The position numbers were made by a program, and so were the translations under genes. A stretch of 64,000 nt of DNA from NCBI GenBank assembly GCA_028704015.1, contig JAQVLT010000002.1, forward strand, positions 9,499-73,498. Direction: 5' to 3'. This DNA is from Patescibacteria group bacterium (lineage in GTDB: Bacteria; Patescibacteriota; Patescibacteriia; Patescibacteriales; JAQVLT01). Shown here piece after piece: positions 3,916-63,155 of the stretch. Under the pieces are notes generated by a model that did not search any database, was not told where the DNA came from, and saw only the letters and a list, made by a program, of their open reading frames with translations. Position 1 is the first letter of the stretch. Every line of letters begins with the position of its first letter.

Positions 3916-3947
3916 ATGAAGGCGACATTTACAAATGTCGCCTTCAT
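3916..3947. terminator. bidirectional hairpin between convergent smc and the 673-aa gene
   Basis: Perfect 15-bp arms atgaaggcgacattt / aaatgtcgccttcat, followed by tttta. Confidence 0.55.
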
Positions 3948-8161: not shown

Positions 8162-8203
8162 TTGTCAAAAATAATTTGACAAAATATGGAGATGTGATAT
8201 AAT
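8162..8203 (+). promoter_or_regulatory. sigma70-type promoter with an overlapping inverted repeat (candidate operator)
   Basis: TTGACA 8176-8181, 16-nt spacer, TATAAT 8198-8203. The inverted repeat ttgtcaaa (8162-8169) / tttgacaa (8175-8182) overlaps the -35 box. Confidence 0.5.
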
Positions 8204-8249
8204 CAATAATAGCTTAAAGCTTTTAGCTGTTAGCTTTTAGAAATAATAA

Positions 8250-8284
8250 CCTCACCCTATCCCTCTCCTTTGCAAGGAGAGGGG
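8250..8284. repeat. CCCTCTCC/GGAGAGGG hairpin (family C)
   Basis: cctcaccc tat ccctctcc tttgcaa ggagagggg. The 3' arm sits 9 nt before the ATG at 8293 and looks like an SD. Confidence 0.6.
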
Positions 8285-14847: not shown

Positions 14848-14870
14848 GCCTTGCCTATCGGCAGACAGGC
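14848..14870. repeat. degenerate family B palindrome
   Basis: gccttgcctatcggcagacaggc, directly after the SBP stop codon. Confidence 0.4.
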
Positions 14871-14958
14871 TTTTAGGTTTTAGGTTGTGGGTTTTTGGTT
14901 GAAATATTTGGTTTATCCCTGATTACTTATTACTATTTACTAATTACTATATTATTTT

Positions 14959-17493: not shown

Positions 17494-17526
17494 GAAGGCG
17501 GCTCGCCAAATCGGCGAGCCGCCTTC
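17494..17526. repeat. GC-rich perfect hairpin (GCCGCCTTCG type)
   Basis: gaaggcggctcgcc aaatc ggcgagccgccttc. No T-run follows. Confidence 0.5.
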
Positions 17527-17538
17527 GTTAATTAGATA

Positions 17539-19236
17539 ATGGACAAAAATATTTATAAAAAAGAGATTGATGAATTGCTAAAAGTGAAGATTGGTTCGCG
17601 CCAAGATTTAATGGTAGCAAAAAGGAAAATTGCCAAGAAATATGGAATGGGAATTTTAACCAATTCTCAGATTTTGAGTTTTATTAAAAAACAAAATATC
17701 AAGAAAGAAACACCGGCATCTCGCCTTCTGGAAAATATTTTGCGTAAACGCGCGGTGCGAACGCTCTCCGGGATTGCTCCGGTCGCAGTATTAGTTAAAC
17801 CTTATAAATGTCCGGGAAAATGCGCTTATTGTCCAACAGAAAAAGACGTGCCGCAGAGTTATTTGTCAAACGAGCCGGCAGTGATGCGCGCGATTCGTTG
17901 TGATTATGATCCTTACACGCAAGTGCAAATGCGGCTTCGCGCTCTGGAAGCGAATGGACATCGGCCGGAAAAAATTGAATTGATTGTCATCGGCGGTACG
18001 TGGTCCTATTTGCCGGAAGAATATAAATTTTGGTACATCAAGGAATGTTTTCGAGCGGCGAACGAGTTTGTAAAAAATCAAAATGCAAAAATCAAAAGTC
18101 AAAATTACAATTCAAAATTAAAAACCTGCCTGCCGGTAGGCAAGGTTGAAAATTTAAAATTGAAACTTAAAAAAGAGCAGGAGAGAAATGAAAGTGCAAA
18201 ATACAGGATTATTGGAATTACGTTAGAGACCCGCCCCGATTATATTAATGAAAAAGAATTATTAGAGATGCGGGAGTTGGGTTGTACGCGCGTGGAATTG
18301 GGTGTGCAAGCGATTGATGATAAAATTTTAAATAAAAATAAACGCGGGCATGGTGTCAAAGAAATCGCGGCCGCGACAAAACTGCTGAAAGATTTCGGGT
18401 TTAAAGTAACTTATCATTTTATGCCCGGGCTTCCAGGATCAACGCCGGCCAAGGATTTAAAAATGTTTAAGCAATTATTTACTGATGAGCGCTTCCAGCC
18501 GGACCAAATAAAATTTTATCCAACCGTGGTGACGCGCGGCAGTTTGCTTTATCGTTGGTGGAAGGCAGGTAAATATAAACCATACTCAAATAAAATTTTA
18601 GAAAATTTAATTATTGCCTGCAAAAAAATCGTGCCGTCATATGTGCGAATAATTCGGTTGATTCGAGATATTCCGGGCGAGTCAATTATAGCCGGAAATC
18701 GCGTGACAAATCTGCGGCAGGTTCTAGAACAACGAGGCGTAAAGTGTAATTGTATTAGATGTAGAGAAGCACGTGGACAACAATTTACAATTAACAATTT
18801 ACAATTAACAATTCTAAAATATAAATCATCAGACGGAGAAGATTATTTTATTAGCGCGGACAGTAAAGATGGAAAAATTTTGTATGGATTTTGCCGATTG
18901 CGCCTTAAATCATCAAAACATGAAAACATTAAATCATTAAAACAAGATCGAGAAAATATGAAACTTGGTTTCGGGTACCCGAAACCAAGTTTCTTGGATG
19001 ACGCCGCGTTGATTCGGGAGTTGCATGTTTATGGAGAATTGGTGCCGGTGGGCGGTGGGAAAAAAGTTCAGCATGTTGGATTGGGAAAAAAATTAATGGC
19101 CGAAGCAGAGAGAATCGCGTATAAAAATGGTTTTAAGAAAATCGCAGTGATTGCCGGCATAGGCGTGCGTGGGTATTATCGGAAGTTAGGGTATCGACTG
19201 GAAAATAGTTATATGGTTAAGCAGTTACCTGGTTAA
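17539..19236 (+). CDS. elp3: Elp3-type radical-SAM/GNAT tRNA-modification enzyme
   Basis: Radical-SAM cluster motif CPGKCAYCP. C-terminal GNAT (HVGLGKKLMAEAERIA). Several repeat-derived in-frame inserts. Confidence 0.8.
   Translation: MDKNIYKKEIDELLKVKIGSRQDLMVAKRKIAKKYGMGILTNSQILSFIKKQNIKKETPASRLLENILRKRAVRTLSGIAPVAVLVKPYKCPGKCAYCPTEKDVPQSYLSNEPAVMRAIRCDYDPYTQVQMRLRALEANGHRPEKIELIVIGGTWSYLPEEYKFWYIKECFRAANEFVKNQNAKIKSQNYNSKLKTCLPVGKVENLKLKLKKEQERNESAKYRIIGITLETRPDYINEKELLEMRELGCTRVELGVQAIDDKILNKNKRGHGVKEIAAATKLLKDFGFKVTYHFMPGLPGSTPAKDLKMFKQLFTDERFQPDQIKFYPTVVTRGSLLYRWWKAGKYKPYSNKILENLIIACKKIVPSYVRIIRLIRDIPGESIIAGNRVTNLRQVLEQRGVKCNCIRCREARGQQFTINNLQLTILKYKSSDGEDYFISADSKDGKILYGFCRLRLKSSKHENIKSLKQDRENMKLGFGYPKPSFLDDAALIRELHVYGELVPVGGGKKVQHVGLGKKLMAEAERIAYKNGFKKIAVIAGIGVRGYYRKLGYRLENSYMVKQLPG
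18123..18147. repeat. family B palindrome inside the elp3 reading frame
   Basis: aacctgcctgccggtaggcaaggtt encodes TCLPVGKV. It sits in a ~100-nt AT-rich-armed insert (about 18076-18175). Confidence 0.65.
18960..18993. repeat. family A (GGGTACCC-core) perfect palindrome inside the elp3 reading frame
   Basis: gaaacttggtttcgggtacccgaaaccaagtttc encodes KLGFGYPKPSF. Confidence 0.7.
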
Positions 19237-22778: not shown

Positions 22779-22815
22779 ACCTCTCCCCCAGCCCCTCTCC
22801 TAGTCAGGAGAGGGG
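22779..22815. repeat. family C hairpin, left flank of the DUF559 gene
   Basis: acctctccccca g cccctctcc tagtca ggagagggg. Confidence 0.6.
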
Positions 22816-22832
22816 AGATAAATTTTTAGTTT

Positions 22833-23183
22833 ATGAAAAATAGCCGAGTTTTGATGATGGCGAAAATTTTAAGAAAACAAATGACGCCAGCAGAGAAAAT
22901 TTTGTGGGAAAAATTAAGGAGGGGCGTGCTAGGTAAAAAATTTAGAAGACAAATGCCATTTGTTTTTGGCGCCTATTATTATGTTGCTGATTTTTATTGC
23001 GCAGAATGTAAATTAATTATAGAAATTGACGGCGATATTCATAATTTGGGAGAAATAAAAGAGCACGACGATTTTCGCGAGGATGTTTTTAAAGAAATGG
23101 GTTATGAAATATTAAGATTTAAAAACGAAGAAGTGTTAAATAATATCAGAAGTGTTGTTGAAAAAATAAAAAAATTAATTTAG
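22833..23183 (+). CDS. DUF559 endonuclease-domain protein
   Basis: Pattern typical of DUF559 (Vsr-like fold): MTPAEKILWEKLR...FRRQ...YVADFYC...IIEIDGDIH. Confidence 0.7.
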   Translation: MKNSRVLMMAKILRKQMTPAEKILWEKLRRGVLGKKFRRQMPFVFGAYYYVADFYCAECKLIIEIDGDIHNLGEIKEHDDFREDVFKEMGYEILRFKNEEVLNNIRSVVEKIKKLI

Positions 23184-23185
23184 TT

Positions 23186-23219
23186 CCCTCTCCTGGCTAG
23201 GAGAGGGACAGAGAGAGGT
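23186..23219. repeat. family C hairpin, right flank of the DUF559 gene
   Basis: ccctctcc tggcta ggagaggg aca gagagaggt, ending at the folD ATG. Confidence 0.6.
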
Positions 23220-27185: not shown

Positions 27186-27917
27186 ATGCGAAAAATGAGT
27201 TTCCAAAATGAAAATTATTATCATATTTATAATAGAGGTGTTGATCACCGGGATATTTTTGGCGATGCCAATGATTTTGGCAGGTTTATCAGAAGTATGA
27301 GAATAATGAATAATAACTCAAATGAAGGACAACGTGATTATGTTTTGAGAAAAATGTTTAAAAGTGGTAAATATCCGGAGCTTAGCTCTGGGTACCCAGA
27401 GCTAAGCTCCTTAACGTCTGGTCTTTTTAATATTTTTAACCAGGAATTAAGATTAGTTGTAAGGAACTATTATAATTTTGTCGAAATAATTTCTTATTGT
27501 TTAAATAAAAATCACTATCATTTATTATTAAAACAATTAATTGATAAAGGCGTTGAAAAATTTCTCCACAAGATTGGCACTAGTTATACAAATTATTTCA
27601 ATTTGAGAAGTAAGCGTTCCGGCTCTCTTTTTGAAACCACTTATAAATCTGCTTATCTCGATACCGAAGGAAAAATTATTCGCGCGTCCACCTATATCAA
27701 CGGCAACCCGGAAATTCATAAAATTTGCCGGGCGGAAAATTGGCCGTGGTCCAGTTATTTAGATTATCTGGGGTTGAGAAGCGGCACGATGTGTAATAAA
27801 GAAATAATTTTAAGTCAATTTAGGTCTATTGAAGAATATCGGAAGTTTGTTAAGATGATTATAAGGGATGAAAAGGCGATTAAAGATGAATTGGAGAAAA
27901 TTGATGATAAATATTAG
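27186..27917 (+). CDS. HUH/Y1 IS200-like (RayT-like) transposase-family protein
   Basis: YHIYNRG strand, HUH motif NHYHLLL, Tyr region STYINGNP, NWPWSSYLDY tail. Carries an internal palindrome. Confidence 0.65.
   Translation: MRKMSFQNENYYHIYNRGVDHRDIFGDANDFGRFIRSMRIMNNNSNEGQRDYVLRKMFKSGKYPELSSGYPELSSLTSGLFNIFNQELRLVVRNYYNFVEIISYCLNKNHYHLLLKQLIDKGVEKFLHKIGTSYTNYFNLRSKRSGSLFETTYKSAYLDTEGKIIRASTYINGNPEIHKICRAENWPWSSYLDYLGLRSGTMCNKEIILSQFRSIEEYRKFVKMIIRDEKAIKDELEKIDDKY
27377..27410. repeat. family A palindrome inside the RayT-like ORF
   Basis: ggagcttagctctgggtacccagagctaagctcc is a perfect 34-nt palindrome. It encodes PELSSGYPELSS. Confidence 0.7.
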
Positions 27918-27950
27918 AAACTTAGTTTCGGGTACCCGAAACTAAGTTTC
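27917..27950. repeat. family A palindrome abutting the stop codon of the RayT-like gene
   Basis: gaaacttagtttcgggtacccgaaactaagtttc is a perfect 34-nt palindrome. Confidence 0.7.
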
Positions 27951-42420: not shown

Positions 42421-42527
42421 AAATTTTTAATTTTGTAATTTTTGAATTTTTAAATAATATTTTAATTTTTAATGTTTAAAAATTTGTTATTAAAAAATTA
42501 TTTATAAAATTAAAAATTCAAAAATTA
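42421..42527. repeat. ~105-nt AT-rich palindromic element (family E)
   Basis: Shares a 37-nt identical block, aatttttaattttgtaatttttgaatttttaaataat, with 47532-47636. Confidence 0.6.
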
Positions 42528-43526
42528 TTCAAATAGCTTCCTTGCTTCTTCCCACATTACCGGATTATTTTTTACCGTCTTCTCCCAGTACCACCATTCT
42601 GCTCCCCAAAGATAGAATTCTTTAAATCCGGTTTGTGAAGAGAATTTAATTATATCACGGAATTTGGTTAAGTCCATGGTGCGCGATTTTTCCGCATCAG
42701 TCATGCTTTGATAAGGAATCGGACCCCAGGGTTCAGCTTCCAACTCTATAACTATCCAATCTTTTGGATGAGCGAAAATGCGCGCCAGATTTTTCTTGAA
42801 TCGGAAAAATCCCGGTGTAATCGGATAGTGAACGTATGTTTTTAAAAAGCGGGAATAAGTATCACGGTACATGGTAGTGCCAAAAATATCCGCTCGCTTG
42901 GCGGCCGGAATCCAAAATGACAATTCACCTGAATCGGTGATTATTATTGGTCGAGAATCTAAAGATTTTACCAAAGAAATTTCTCTATCCAAAAAATTTT
43001 TATCCAGTTTTGGGCATTCGCCGAAGTGAGTTAAAAAAGGTTCATTCTCAATCTGCCAGGCAGTAATTTGCGGTTTGTCGCGATAATGTTCTACGGTTTT
43101 GGCGATGTATGATAATATTTTTGTCTCTCGTTCGGTTTGACCTAGACCTTGCGCCCACTCGGGGAAATGGCATTCAGGCCAGCGCGGCAGACGGCCGCCG
43201 ACTGCTAAAATAATATTGGCATCATAACGCCCGGCTTCATTGATCTGCCAATCCAGGTCTTTGAAACTATATTGTCCGCTATTGCTTTCTATTTCATCCC
43301 AATAAGCCGGCAGGCGGATTTTTTTTGCTCCTAGATTTTCCAAAATCTCCAAATAGGTTTTTTTCCAATCCAGTCCCAGATTTTGCGCTTGTTTTTTGGA
43401 AAAAGTCAGGCCGTAAGACAATTCGCTTTTTTTGTAAATATGGCCACGGCTCAAAATAAATATGACAAAAATTAAAATAATTAAGACGAATATTAGTTTT
43501 TTAAAAAATTTTAGAGAGTGGAACAT
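42525..43526 (-). CDS. membrane-anchored TIM-barrel glycoside-hydrolase-like protein
   Basis: N-terminal TM helix. GH5/GH42-like segments (IRLPAYWDEIE, WQIENEPF). Confidence 0.5.
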   Translation of the reverse strand: MFHSLKFFKKLIFVLIILIFVIFILSRGHIYKKSELSYGLTFSKKQAQNLGLDWKKTYLEILENLGAKKIRLPAYWDEIESNSGQYSFKDLDWQINEAGRYDANIILAVGGRLPRWPECHFPEWAQGLGQTERETKILSYIAKTVEHYRDKPQITAWQIENEPFLTHFGECPKLDKNFLDREISLVKSLDSRPIIITDSGELSFWIPAAKRADIFGTTMYRDTYSRFLKTYVHYPITPGFFRFKKNLARIFAHPKDWIVIELEAEPWGPIPYQSMTDAEKSRTMDLTKFRDIIKFSSQTGFKEFYLWGAEWWYWEKTVKNNPVMWEEARKLFE

Positions 43527-43534
43527 AGTTTAAA

Positions 43535-43629
43535 CCTCTCCCCGACTCTCCGCCAGCTGGCGGATCGTCATCCCTCTCCTAATTAGCCTGCCTGTCCGGT
43601 AGGCAGGGAGAGGGGTTGGGGGTGAGGGA
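43535..43629. repeat. composite repeat: family C hairpin with family B palindrome nested in its loop
   Basis: ccctctcc taattag [cctgcctgtccggtaggcagg] gagagggg, plus outer arms cctctcccc / ggggtgaggg and an extra gccagctggc palindrome. Confidence 0.65.
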
Positions 43630-43635
43630 TGAAAT

Positions 43636-44061
43636 TTATTTGCACATCCAAACAGTATAGCCGCTGGTGATATCAAGCAAGCAGTCAGTAACAAATTGGG
43701 TAATAGAATAAGCGGCTAAAATAATTATGAGTCCGATAACCGCGCGTTTAATCGTGTTTACGGATTCTTTAACCTGCTCTTCGTTCCCTTGGGAAGTCAT
43801 ATATTTAAAACCCGAGTAGATAATGAGAACAATAAAAATAATTCCCAAAAGGCCCAGCATTATTTTTATCAATTTTGCGATAATGACGCGAATGTCTTGA
43901 GGCGCGCCAAAAGTATTTTGCAATTCAGTTTTGCCTACTTGCTGGCTCCAAAGAGATTGTTCGGCAGAGGCAACGGGCGCACTTGCCAAAAATAAAAATT
44001 GCCCTAAGATAAGAGTGCCAAAGATTAAACTGACGATAAAAATTTTTTTGGAAATTTGCAT
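43636..44061 (-). CDS. VirB2/TrbC-like (T4SS-pilin family) protein
   Basis: Signal peptide, then the core MLGLLGIIFIVLIIYSGFKYMTSQGNEEQVKESVNTIKRAVIGLIIILAAYSI. Confidence 0.6.
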   Translation of the reverse strand: MQISKKIFIVSLIFGTLILGQFLFLASAPVASAEQSLWSQQVGKTELQNTFGAPQDIRVIIAKLIKIMLGLLGIIFIVLIIYSGFKYMTSQGNEEQVKESVNTIKRAVIGLIIILAAYSITQFVTDCLLDITSGYTVWMCK

Positions 44062-44318
44062 AGTATTTATGTTATAATGTAAATAGTTGCTTAGTCGCTT
44101 GGTTAATTAGTTTATCTTATTTAAAAACATATATTCGTTCAACTACGTAACTAATATTAATTATAACTAATATTGGGAAATAAGTAAAAACCACTTTTAA
44201 TAATTTTAAATTTTAAGTTTTAAATTTTAAGTCAATTTTAAATAATAAAATGACAAATTGCGGTTATAATTTATAAAAAAGATTAACAGAAAAAGCTCTA
44301 AATCCCAATATCTAAATC

Positions 44319-44931
44319 CCTGTCTGCCGGCAGGCAGGCTAAATAAATTCAAAATACTAAATCTAAATGATCAAAACAGCGACTAATTATTACGATTTGG
44401 AAGAAAGAACGTTAAAATTCGCTAAAATGGTAAGAGAATTTATTAAGAAATTGCCGAAAACAATTTCTAATATAGAAGATAGTAAACAATTAGCTCGTTC
44501 ATCCGGATCGGTTGGCGCTAACTACATTGAAGCTAACGAAGCATTAAGCAAGAAAGACTTTGTCATGAGAATAAAAATTTGCCGCAAAGAAGCGAAAGAA
44601 TCAAAATATTGGCTGTTACTAATTGATTGCCAAAAAGAATTAATACTAGAACGTGACACCTTAATTAAAGAAGCAACCGAACTAACTAAAATATTTGGAG
44701 CAATTTTAGAGAAATGCAAATAAAATAGTTGTATAATAGTGTTTTGAGTTTAAATAATTAGAATTTTGAATTTGTTTAGGATTTAGAGTTTAGTGCTTAG
44801 GGTTTCAGGAATGTTATAGCAGGAAGCGCAGGAATTAACTCTAATTTTTTCACGAATCACGCTCACCTTAGAAAAGAAAATTTAAAATTTAGTAATTTAT
44901 CATTCAATTAACCTGCCTGCCGGCAGACAGG
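44319..44931. mobile_element. 613-bp cassette: four-helix-bundle gene between inverted family B palindromes and AT-rich subterminal inverted repeats
   Basis: 44319-44338 (cctgtctgccggcaggcagg) is the exact reverse complement of 44912-44931. Inner arms (ctaaat.../aaattcaaaat versus attttgaattt/...atttag) match the gene-less element at 58564-58695. Confidence 0.5.
44367..44723 (+). CDS. four-helix-bundle protein (23S rRNA intervening-sequence protein family)
   Basis: SSGSVGANYIEANEALSKKDFVMRIKICRKEAKESKYWLLLI. Confidence 0.75.
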   Translation: MIKTATNYYDLEERTLKFAKMVREFIKKLPKTISNIEDSKQLARSSGSVGANYIEANEALSKKDFVMRIKICRKEAKESKYWLLLIDCQKELILERDTLIKEATELTKIFGAILEKCK

Positions 44932-44962
44932 AATTTATAATTTAGAATTTAAAATTTTTGTT

Positions 44963-61874: not shown

Positions 61875-62495
61875 ATGTCCGTGGAAACCCATATTTATGA
61901 TAAGCGTTTTTTTAAGAATACCATCAAATTGGAAGATGATTCTGCGGCGGCCGCAGTTTCTATTTTGATAAAATATTTTTTGCCCAGATCAGTTATTGAT
62001 ATTGGTTGCGGTTGTGGAATTTATTTGAAAGAATTTTCAAATCAAGGCGTAGAAATTTTTGGATACGACGGCGCTCCGGCAGCGCTTGAATCTTCACTGG
62101 TTGGCGACAAAATCAAGCTTCATGATTTATGCGTGCCATTGGTAATAAATAAAAAATTTGATCTTTGCCTCTGCGTTGAAGTCGCTGAACATTTACCGCC
62201 CGAATACGCTAATATTTTAGTTGAGACTTTGGCAAATTTATCTGACATTATTATTTTTTCTGCCGCCACTCCGGGCCAAGGTCCGCGTTCCATCGGACAT
62301 ATCAACGAACAGCCGCCGGAATATTGGCTAGAAAAATTTCAATCTAAAAATTTTATTTTTGACCAAAATATATCTTTAAAGATAAAAAAAGAAATGGAAG
62401 AAAAGGGTGTTGTCTGGTGGATTACTAAGAATTTAATGATATTTAAAAATGACCCGTGTCAAACCCGAGCCGGAAAAAATTTACCACATTTATAA
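61875..62495 (+). CDS. class I SAM-dependent methyltransferase
   Basis: Motif I IDIGCGCG. The 3' tail overlaps the 5' fragment of the disrupted RayT-like gene in another frame. Confidence 0.65.
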   Translation: MSVETHIYDKRFFKNTIKLEDDSAAAAVSILIKYFLPRSVIDIGCGCGIYLKEFSNQGVEIFGYDGAPAALESSLVGDKIKLHDLCVPLVINKKFDLCLCVEVAEHLPPEYANILVETLANLSDIIIFSAATPGQGPRSIGHINEQPPEYWLEKFQSKNFIFDQNISLKIKKEMEEKGVVWWITKNLMIFKNDPCQTRAGKNLPHL

Positions 62496-62515
62496 CCTGC
62501 CTACCGGCAGGCAGG
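62496..62515. repeat. family B palindrome interrupting the YHIYN|RG motif
   Basis: cctgcctaccggcaggcagg. Removing these 20 nt restores one continuous ORF. Confidence 0.7.
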
Positions 62516-62660
62516 TCGTGGCGTTGAAAAAAGAAAGATATTTATGGATAAATGGGATTATATTAGATTTTTAGAAAGTACGAGAGAGTTTAATTGTGAT
62601 GAACCGATTGGCAGTCTCTATTTAAAAAAATATCTCGCCCAAAAAAACAAAGTTAGCCAA

Positions 62661-62692
62661 GGTGTCGGACACCCTATAGGGTGTCCGACACC
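62661..62692. repeat. perfect 32-nt palindrome inside the RayT-like reading frame
   Basis: ggtgtcggacaccctatagggtgtccgacacc encodes GVGHPIGCPTP. It occupies the same position as the family A palindrome in the 27186 paralogue. Confidence 0.7.
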
Positions 62693-63155
62693 TAAACAAG
62701 AGATTTTAGTTGAATATTTAGCTTATTGTCTACTGCCTAATCATTTTCATTTTTTAATTATAGAAAAATCAGAGGGAGGTATCCCAAAATTCATGAAAAG
62801 GCTAAGCGGTGGCTATACTAATTATTTTAACAAAAAATATCTTCGCACCGGTTCATTGTTCCAAGGGAAATATAAAATATTTGAAGTAAAGTATAGTCAT
62901 TTTTTAAAATTATCCGTTTATGTTAATTGTAATGCCGAAGTGCATAAAATCAACCGAGCGGAAAATTGGCCATGGTCAAGCTATTTGGATTATATCAATG
63001 AAAGAAACGGAACTTTATGCAATTAAGAATTAATTTTGGAAGAATTTGGCAGCCGAAATAATTTTAAAAAATTTTGCCAAACAATTTTACCTGATATAAT
63101 AAAAAATAAAGAGTTATCGGAAAATTTAACTGAATAATTAAATTGCAAAGGGTTC

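Follow-up and report, generated by a model that had tools for sequence, protein, structure and literature searches.

The 109 nt spacer between a pilin gene and a glycoside hydrolase (GH)-like gene, which are co-directional on the (-) strand, is likely to be a nested stack of BoxC, B and D palindromes gained in the lineage of this organism, B being a separate element that behaves as an exact 20 nt unit. The whole stretch of DNA analysed, hereafter the window, comprises 64,000 nucleotides with a GC content of 35-40%, and every element that the original prediction had placed in the spacer was located in its sequence. On the + strand the spacer reads aaCCTCTCCCC gactct CCGCCAGCTGGCGG atcgtcat CCCTCTCC taattag CCTGCCTGTCCGGTAGGCAGG GAGAGGGG ttg GGGGTGAGGG a, and its features, together with the other copies of the repeats found in the window, are shown in Table 1.

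Table 1. Features of the pilin-GH spacer and copies of its repeats elsewhere in the window
Feature	Position	Strand	Remarks
Family C / BoxC-like copy without B	8249-8283	-	Loop TTGCA
Family B copy	14850-14869		Four GC>AT transitions; intergenic
Family B copy	18125-18144		In Elp3-like ORF
Family C / BoxC-like copy without B	22781-22815	-	Upstream of DUF559 gene
Family C / BoxC-like copy without B	23185-23219	+	Downstream of DUF559 gene
Downstream gene, GH-like protein (Cellulase / GH42 matches)	42525-43526	-	
Outer C-rich block CCTCTCCCC	43535-43543	+	
Imperfect 26 nt palindrome GACTCTCCGCCAGCTGGCGGATCGTC	43544-43569		Core is family D
BoxC-type hairpin (family C), C-rich arm CCCTCTCCT	43572-43580	+	
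Loop AATT (43581-43584) plus AG	43581-43586	+	AG is the start of the G-rich arm, split off by B
Family B palindrome CCTGCCTG-T-CCGGTAGGCAGG	43587-43607	+	T-form (GGTAGG)
BoxC G-rich block 1, rest, GAGAGGGG	43608-43615	+	
BoxC loop 2 (TTG) and G-rich block 2 (GGGGTGAGGG)	43616-43628	+	
Upstream gene, T4SS-type pilin (PF18895)	43636-44061	-	
Family B copy	44319-44338		Left of four-helix-bundle gene; exact reverse complement of the 44912 copy
Family B copy	44912-44931		Right of four-helix-bundle gene
Family B copy, exactly 20 nt	62496-62515		Interrupts RAYT-like gene

The stem of the scaffold hairpin (family C; CCCTCTCC...GGAGAGGG) was found four times in the 64 kb (at 8261, 22793, 23186 and 43572), always in intergenic DNA, and in none of 100 shuffled sequences. 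As originally predicted, the copies at 8261, 22793 and 23186 have loops of 6-7 nt; the copy at 43572 encloses 27 nt. All four stems proved to be longer by one T/A pair (CCCTCTCCT / AGGAGAGGG), and because of this extension the deletion of the 21 nt at 43587-43607 left CCCTCTCCT-AATT-AGGAGAGGG, that is CCCTCTCCTAATTAGGAGAGGG, a perfect 22 nt palindrome with a 9 bp stem that resembles the other three copies. Removal of B therefore restores a canonical hairpin, as had been proposed, although with a loop of 4 nt (AATT) and not of 7 nt. The proposal that B entered the tip of the hairpin was not borne out, since the G^G step that B occupies is where the loop meets the 3' arm, two bases inside the extended 3' arm. 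Among 31 C hairpins from loci that had not been selected for the composite, 24 had loops of 3-7 nt and the rare long loops contained other nested palindromes, so that long heterogeneous loops are not a common property of the family. The idea that the B-like sequence is mere loop variation of family C, which can draw on the differences between the loops of C copies and on nothing further, has next to no chance of being right in view of these loop lengths, and also because the family of the insert has hundreds of identical copies outside C.

Judged from its sequence, family C appears to be a diverged form of the BoxC / PIT / TMECO repeat, whose motif is 5'-CCCTCNCCC-N3-6-GGGNGAGGG-N3-GGGNGAGGG and of which Holder et al. 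(2015, PMC4666352) give 23 copies for Escherichia coli MG1655 and 3610 across 262 genomes of Proteobacteria. A fuzzy TMECO pattern with up to four substitutions matched three of the window copies as they stand (8249-8283 and 22781-22814 on the - strand, 23186-23219 on the + strand) and the 43572 copy only once B had been deleted, with no matches in 20 shuffles. The window copies carry 3-4 substitutions in the 24 specified bases of this pattern, whereas the published search looked for three consecutive blocks and allowed one mismatch (PMC4666352). The three-block layout is the same as that described for BoxC/PIT/TMECO (Bachellier; Hoyne et al. 2000; PMC4666352), and the block sequences CCCTCTCC, GGAGAGGG and GGGTGAGGG are common to family C and the E. 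coli copies (Table 1 of PMC4666352). Both are intergenic and sometimes form inverted pairs, as do the copy at 23185 and the one at 22781, which are inverted with respect to each other and flank the DUF559 gene. On the other hand, TMECO has been reported from Proteobacteria (G/C-rich triplex motifs also from cyanobacteria), whereas family C is found here in a CPR-type genome; the E. coli BoxC copies have no B, unlike the 43572 copy; and BoxC has been described as a purine-motif intrastrand triplex, whereas for family C it was hairpin folding that was computed. Canonical BoxC was also present in unrelated fetched loci (L029, L030, L085, L074 and L174), which came from a viral contig, a member of the Chitinophagaceae, a deltaproteobacterium and a relative of the window organism.

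According to this arrangement, the scaffold of the spacer would be a BoxC repeat (C-rich and G-rich blocks separated by a loop, and another G-rich block 3 nt further on) with an extra complementary block on its left and the family D palindrome in the linker. The outer arms described in the original prediction do exist and 43535-43543 pairs imperfectly with 43619-43628, but the right arm GGGGTGAGGG (43619-43628) corresponds to the third block of BoxC/TMECO, because the window copies share the three-block TMECO layout, and the left arm CCTCTCCCC is the complement of a BoxC block of the third type. Similarly, the third small palindrome is present but does not stand alone: it is part of the family D repeat TCCGCCAGCTGGCGGA (43549-43564), a small palindrome separate from C and B, for which six further copies were found in unrelated genomes within 1.46 Mb of fetched loci, where about 0.01 would be expected.

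On the sense (-) strand the left outer block is GGGGAGAGG, which resembles a Shine-Dalgarno site because 8 nt separate it from the downstream ATG of the GH-like gene. Folding of the sense strand of the spacer as RNA gave -53.1 kcal/mol (z = -4.7) and folding of the + strand as DNA gave -26.7 kcal/mol (z = -4.3), and in each case none of 200 shuffles was as good; the computed structure consists of two hairpins within one outer stem, in which the GGGGAGAGG upstream of the GH start codon is predicted to be paired. A search of the window with Rfam gave three tRNAs only and no match at the composite, and no intrinsic terminator was found in the spacer. Since the composite lies between co-directional genes and the RBS-like GGGGAGAGG is paired in the modelled outer stem, one may speculate that the folded composite affects mRNA stability or translation of the GH-like gene. 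Any action at this locus would probably be incidental, that of a stable intercistronic structure holding a GGAGAGG RBS-like site.

The consensus of family B is a perfect 20 nt palindrome with an 8-4-8 structure, CCTGCCTGCCGGCAGGCAGG, that begins with CCTG and ends with CAGG. We take the element to be CCTGCCTGCCGGYAGGCAGG and the enclosed copy CCTGCCTGTCCGGTAGGCAGG, flanked by G on either side and bearing one extra T, to be a probable decayed version of 21 nt. Five more copies were found in the window, which gave a total of six with up to three mismatches to CCTGCCTACCGGCAGGCAGG, where none would be expected by chance; together with the many external copies they support the reading that the C hairpin holds a distinct unit, family B, nested within it. 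The ten substitutions across these six copies were all GC>AT transitions, suggesting that the window copies are old and decaying. The copy at 18125 is read in frame together with its A/T-rich low-complexity flanks.

Outside the window, the pattern CCTGYCTRCCGGYAGRCAGG matched 49 stretches in IMG/VR viral contigs and at least 120 loci in GTDB contigs taken from one genome per species, where about 9 would be expected by chance. Among the matches listed, the hosts were Bacteroidota, many CPR lineages, Omnitrophota, Planctomycetota, Nitrospirota, Chloroflexota, Desulfobacterota-type 'delta' lineages, Bdellovibrionales and uncultured Gammaproteobacteria; cultured Bacteroidota bearing B were Winogradskyella, Olivibacter, Flagellimonas, Longitalea and Flavivirga, among them the isolates Winogradskyella echinorum KCTC 22026, Olivibacter oleidegradans CCM 7765 and Flagellimonas yonaguniensis. 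Identical copies were found in hosts of 26-72% GC. Two forms predominated: the perfect palindrome (117 copies) and a T-form, CCTGCCTGCCGGTAGGCAGG, which differs by one C>T change (58 copies); from this GGTAGG variant the orientation of B can be read. Long open frames contained 20% of the B copies as compared with 51% of random positions. In E. coli genomes, PLSDB plasmids and cultured phages there were only partial matches at chance level, E. coli having the BoxC part only, and a match in Sinorhizobium was discarded because it proved to be a BoxC-like hairpin whose apical extension is not B. Of 187 loci outside the window, none linked B with four-helix-bundle (23S_rRNA_IVP) genes. A literature search by sequence found no description of B or of its 14-15-mers, and a keyword search added nothing; element B, its identity across phyla and phage contigs and its stereotyped landing site in BoxC appear to be new.

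Several loci with and without B corroborated the claim that B inserts into pre-existing DNA. Two viral contigs, L022 and L039 (...CATTTCCAAG(B)TCCGACAACC...), differed from a third, L299 (...CATTTCCAAGTCCGACAACC...), by an exact 20 nt indel without duplication, in flanks about 91% identical, and within one viral contig (L029/L030) paralogous BoxC modules with and without B differed by 20 nt; the filled and empty BoxC pairs found are paralogous cases only. B was also inserted into B in seven loci (including L077, L114, L071, L165, L120 and L091), and the outer halves rejoined to the exact 20-mer. In the window, the copy at 62496 splits the RAYT-like gene between YHIYN and RGVEKRKIF, and its deletion restores a 185 aa Y1_Tnp ORF. 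A phage tRNA-Met bearing B in its variable loop was called by ARAGORN as a 92 nt tRNA that became a normal one of 72 nt after B deletion, and the intact form of this tRNA was present in another contig. Other copies were found in tRNA 5' fragments, at the D-loop, and, in L166, in the 4 nt loop of an intrinsic terminator. Empty sites were also sought for L033, L004/L044 and L029@959, and these searches returned filled loci only. The loci with and without B support the insertion of an exact unit into pre-existing DNA, with no duplication of the target site; the same exact unit is possibly also lost from DNA. We considered as well that B copies might commonly break ORFs that close on its deletion, and this was rejected because there was no excess (12% versus 15% in the control).

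That B is instead an operator or recombination site of a conserved protein, kept by selection at regulatory positions, could be argued from its perfect 8-4-8 palindrome, its mostly intergenic location and its high conservation. Its presence in coding genes (in one case breaking the frame), in tRNA genes and fragments, in itself and in phage contigs, as well as the decay of the window copies by GC>AT transitions, makes this very improbable.

The nesting seen in the window recurs elsewhere. The arrangement CCTCTCC-N0-10-B-N0-10-GGAGAGG was present in at least 120 metagenome contigs with a GC content of 32-57%, the dominant composite being cCCCTCACCC-nnn-CCTCTCCCC-AGCG-(T-form B)-GGGAGAGG-nnn-GGGTGAGGGG; the strict pattern gave no matches in viral contigs. 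Among the matches listed, the loop bases were always 5' of the oriented B, which abuts the G-rich 3' arm, and the window copy, TAATTAG(B)GAGAGGG, has exactly the polarity of these contigs. Empty hairpins in the same loci had the loops of the filled ones minus 20 nt (CCAGCGG as compared with CCAGCG(B)G). B was also found between BoxC G-block 1 and loop 2 (L029, L030 twice, L068), inside G-block 2 (L153, twice) and at other BoxC positions (L131 and L265), and this occurrence at four or more different BoxC positions shows that B and BoxC are separable. When copies were found without reference to BoxC, about 95% of them were B alone, outside BoxC. B is an independent family, separate from BoxC.

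These same composites could be read as one integral structured RNA or DNA element, spreading or kept as a whole, in which selection would maintain the B stem as an apical module and no insertion has occurred, in keeping with a very stable fold and with an architecture and polarity so stereotyped in at least 120 contigs, almost always with the GGTAGG form. We regard this as quite unlikely, because B is mostly alone, occupies at least four BoxC positions, and has empty BoxC counterparts with identical loops and filled and empty paralogues that differ by exactly 20 nt; moreover, no Rfam family matches. The proportion of forms nevertheless deserves attention: GGTAGG to perfect copies were about 110:10 in BoxC contexts and 58:117 overall, and this excess means that the composites could share descent instead of being independent insertions.

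As for the history of the pilin-GH locus, three relatives encode a GH protein about 70% identical to that of the window and keep the gene order (polysaccharide-synthesis gene, pilin, GH and ROK), and their pilin-GH spacers, which measure 5, 14 and 71 nt, are AT-rich and lack all of these repeats. Because these spacers have no GC-rich palindromes, the whole composite would be a gain of the window lineage, in which three small GC-rich palindromic repeats came to be nested; at about 70% amino acid identity, it is only the state of the spacer that can be compared with the relatives. The comparison of strains at this spacer, which the original prediction had advised, gave only identical copies, since exact-protein look-ups for an allele without B returned L001 and L002 (GCA_028707515.1). 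The composite may have arrived at the locus ready-made, because BoxC::B is so common elsewhere, and both this abundance and the bias to the T-form favour arrival as a unit; the T/A-extended stem that the 43572 copy shares with the three B-less copies of the window favours insertion in place. On either history, the nest traces back to the insertion of B into a BoxC hairpin.

The sequences flanking B were then compared. With the T-form oriented, position -1 was G in 76% and A in 21% of the copies, while at position +1 G made up 55% and T 36%, and A never occurred; the perfect form showed the same R^K tendency at its flanks. A strong target motif was sought and only these biases, R at -1 and K at +1, were detected, with no conserved target of 4-5 nt. 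Hence B, oriented by GGTAGG, would sit between a purine (mostly G) and a G or T, and in BoxC it would land at the last loop base, beside the G-rich 3' arm. Of 183 B copies, 8.7% had a perfect stem of 7 bp or more in their flanks, within 10 nt, and the corresponding share was 1.1-1.5% for random sites and 1.9% for non-coding-like ones (p = 7e-7); stems of at least 8 bp accompanied 6.0% of the B copies and 0.8% of the controls, so that flanking hairpins are 4-7 times enriched. The suspected preference for hairpin loops is therefore real but partial, because about 85-90% of the copies lie outside any detectable flanking hairpin. The lag-7 identity of the flanks rose modestly (0.311 versus 0.262), with clear embedding in tandem heptamers at 44319 and 44912 of the window and in L004, L034, L032 and L126. 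The four orientable copies of the window were distributed 2:2 on a uniformly skewed segment, a ratio based on four copies only.

Tentatively, B can be viewed as a mobile hairpin of 20 nt, with one sequence across at least ten phyla and phages, that is moved in trans by a widespread enzyme acting on single-stranded DNA and whose choice of targets (R^K steps at hairpin tips, BoxC loops, tRNA loops and B itself) depends partly on its own sequence, a reading that is possible but that we hold with considerable doubt; the C-to-T variant with a shifted target spectrum would fit such a choice. On this reading BoxC, B and D would form a cross-phylum 'ecosystem' of nesting palindromes. More generally, B would move as single-stranded hairpin DNA mobilised in trans, and hairpin tips would be targeted because they expose single strands. 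The most plausible mobiliser would be a Y1 HUH (RAYT/IS200-like) enzyme, since this chemistry needs hairpins and leaves no duplication and since the window encodes RAYT-like proteins: there are at least three RAYT-like Y1 proteins, with best scores of 23, 23 and 77.9 bits against the NCBIfam model REP_Tyr_transpos, whose cut-off is 80. RAYT-like proteins are encoded at 27186-27917 and, once repaired, by the gene at 62449-63026. Among 170 loci, only one had a RAYT-like gene near B within the fetched 8 kb, and in the window B disrupts a RAYT-like gene rather than flanking one. This scarcity of linked genes counts against the Y1/RAYT candidate, as do the lack of a conserved tetranucleotide target and the sameness of the 20-mer in many phyla, which a REP and a RAYT evolving together would hardly show.

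The spread of B without a dedicated transposase seems unlikely; it would proceed by replication template switching or by repair synthesis primed at stalled hairpins, an existing B being copied with the help of 1-2 nt of G microhomology, or else by gene conversion between repeats. The lack of target duplication, junctions ambiguous by 1-2 G, the enrichment at hairpins, the modest period-7 signal of the flanks, the absence of a linked enzyme gene among those found and the very different hosts all agree with it, but template switching usually gives variable end points, whereas the exact 20 nt unit of B, sharp-ended in over 300 copies, and the rule at its flanks, which depends on orientation, fit an enzyme cut better.

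Among known systems, the Rickettsia palindromic elements and the mitochondrial GC clusters and double-hairpin elements are selfish, enter genes in frame, nest and have entered tolerated loops of structured-RNA genes; they are of about 30-150 nt and lineage-restricted, and some have target duplications. B shares with these palindromes the entry into coding genes and structured-RNA genes and the nesting, but it is much shorter and cross-phylum. The SDR1-8 repeats of the Nostocaceae, described by Elhai et al. in 2008, are reportedly mobile hairpin-forming repeats of 21-27 nt that nest in themselves and in other repeats and frequently lie within tandem heptamers. Like B, they are small discrete insertion units capable of self-nesting; B, for its part, is associated with heptamers to a modest degree only. 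According to PMC5861425, the Nostocaceae are the only group from which SDRs have been reported, and as described these repeats of 21-27 nt differ from B, which is of 20 nt and identical across many phyla and phage contigs.

REPs are extragenic palindromes of 20-40 nt, some of them inside ORFs (Bertels & Rainey 2011, PMC3116915; Di Nocera et al. 2013, PMC3733652), and for some REP families insertion into other small palindromes has been described (PMC3733652, section 7). As in REP/REPIN systems, B is a short, mostly extragenic, multicopy palindrome, and the window genome encodes RAYT-like Y1 proteins as REP hosts encode RAYT genes. However, the terminal GTAG/CGTC tag of REPs is absent from B, where GTAG is only internal and occurs in the GGTAGG variant only, and B has neither the REPtron (REPs flanking their cognate RAYT) nor the genome specificity of REPs. 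We therefore rejected B as a member of REP/REPIN. IS200/IS605 elements resemble B in that they show no target duplication, hairpin dependence and strand-specific insertion beside a defined base context, but unlike B they have separate left and right ends, a conserved target of four or five nucleotides at whose 3' side they insert, an orientation tied to the lagging-strand template and a transposase, whereas B has only R at -1 and K at +1. B is not a MITE either (terminal inverted repeats, target duplication, 70-300 bp), because it has 20 nt and makes no duplication. The nesting of palindromes thus has precedents in the Nostoc SDRs and in the REPs found within palindromes (PMC3733652).

Small palindromic repeats are usually viewed as genome-specific partners of a local transposase (REP/RAYT), and B contrasts with this view, offering a system in which it can be tested how minimal DNA hairpins move and stay identical across phyla. 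The nests of B and BoxC bear on how composite intergenic structures that hide an RBS or break genes and tRNAs are built. For annotation, such nests create spurious ORFs, frameshifts and over-long 'tRNAs'.

Two copies of B, the 20-nt GC-rich palindromic repeat, flank a four-helix-bundle (23S_rRNA_IVP) gene of the window; each is the exact reverse complement of the other, and both carry the same C>T variant and lie within heptamer-like arrays. This segment looks like a cassette bounded by the inverted B copies, because the whole of it is missing from the orthologous spacer in three relatives. B was not seen next to this gene family in 170 other loci. On viral contigs, B pairs with longer inverted flanks enclose segments of 0.6-1.4 kb; larger inverted-repeat units may thus exist that have B at their ends. 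A DUF559 (Vsr-like endonuclease) gene has a BoxC-like hairpin repeat on either side, the two in inverted orientation, an arrangement similar to that known for pairs of TMECO in E. coli.

At one fetched locus (L131) a three-level nest is present, in which the loop of a BoxC hairpin carries a B-like palindrome that is itself split by the GC-rich palindrome GCGAAGCCGCTTCGGCGAAG, and a BoxC-like hairpin of Sinorhizobium meliloti pSymB bears at its tip another palindromic extension, GCATGC-GGCG-GCATGC. The tips of BoxC hairpins may be a general landing place of small palindromes. The viral contig IMGVR_UViG_2848964341_000001 contains more than 12 BoxC modules, located between genes, in which two subtypes alternate, one with GAGTGTAGC upstream and a GGGGTGAGG tail and the other with CTCTCGGCACG upstream and a GGGGAGAGG tail; B is found within three of these modules. 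Family D, TCCGCCAGCTGGCGGA, is a small palindrome common to unrelated genomes (CPR, Saccharibacteria and a gammaproteobacterial MAG), which adjoins B at L065 and L073 and lies in the loop of a longer hairpin at L110:4469. Some B copies are located at the D-loop position of tRNA remnants, either isolated 5' fragments or partial duplications; at L097, the B-bearing fragment is immediately upstream of an intact tRNA-Val.

B also lies within genes of the window. A RAYT-like (Y1_Tnp) gene is interrupted by a 20-nt copy, and the ORF upstream of it stops within the same few bases. An Elp3-like radical-SAM/GNAT ORF has a B copy flanked by low-complexity A/T-rich sequence and, elsewhere in the ORF, a palindrome of 34 nt (18960-18993), both being read in frame (…KLKTCLPVGKVENLK… and …KLGFGYPKPSF…). 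This palindrome is one of the perfect palindromes of 32-34 nt found in the window, with stems of 15 bp and centres of 4 nt (e.g. GTAC). Several of them are contained in RAYT-like ORFs, where they are translated in frame, and at 27917 one coincides exactly with the stop codon of such a gene. The palindromes at 18960, 27377 and 27917 have a common scaffold, NNNNCTTRGNTNNGGGTACCC..., with compensatory changes between them. The RAYT-like genes of the window may have their true REP partners in these palindromes.

Coordinates of the repeats and associated genes
Feature	Window	Other loci
Segment with inverted B copies	44319-44931	
Four-helix-bundle gene	44367-44723	
B pairs on viral contigs		L031:9001 + 10422; L004/L044 pairs 658 nt apart
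Segment with inverted BoxC-like copies	22781-23219	
DUF559 gene	22833-23183	
Three-level nest		L131:3717-3771
BoxC modules, viral contig		L030:3900-7450; L029
BoxC-like hairpin, pSymB		L298 (793794-793844)
Family D	43549-43564	L065:3333; L072:2858; L073:161; L099:967; L110:2963; L110:4469
B at tRNA-fragment D-loops		L046:515; L072:4041; L107:2127; L097:3628
B-interrupted RAYT-like gene	62449-63026 (B, 62496-62515)	
ORF upstream of it	61875-62495	
Elp3-like ORF	17539-19236 (B and flanks, 18060-18200)	
Perfect palindromes, 32-34 nt	265-298; 3916-3947; 17494-17526; 18960-18993; 27377-27410; 27917-27950; 62660-62693	
RAYT-like ORFs containing several of them	58-579; 27186-27917; 62544-63026	
7-nt-period arrays	8180-8250; 14870-14900; 44290-44360; 44880-44960	

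Finally, several intergenic regions of the window around the B and BoxC-like copies consist of short arrays of tandem repeats whose period is 7 nt (units such as agctttt/agctgtt, ctaaatc and aatttat).
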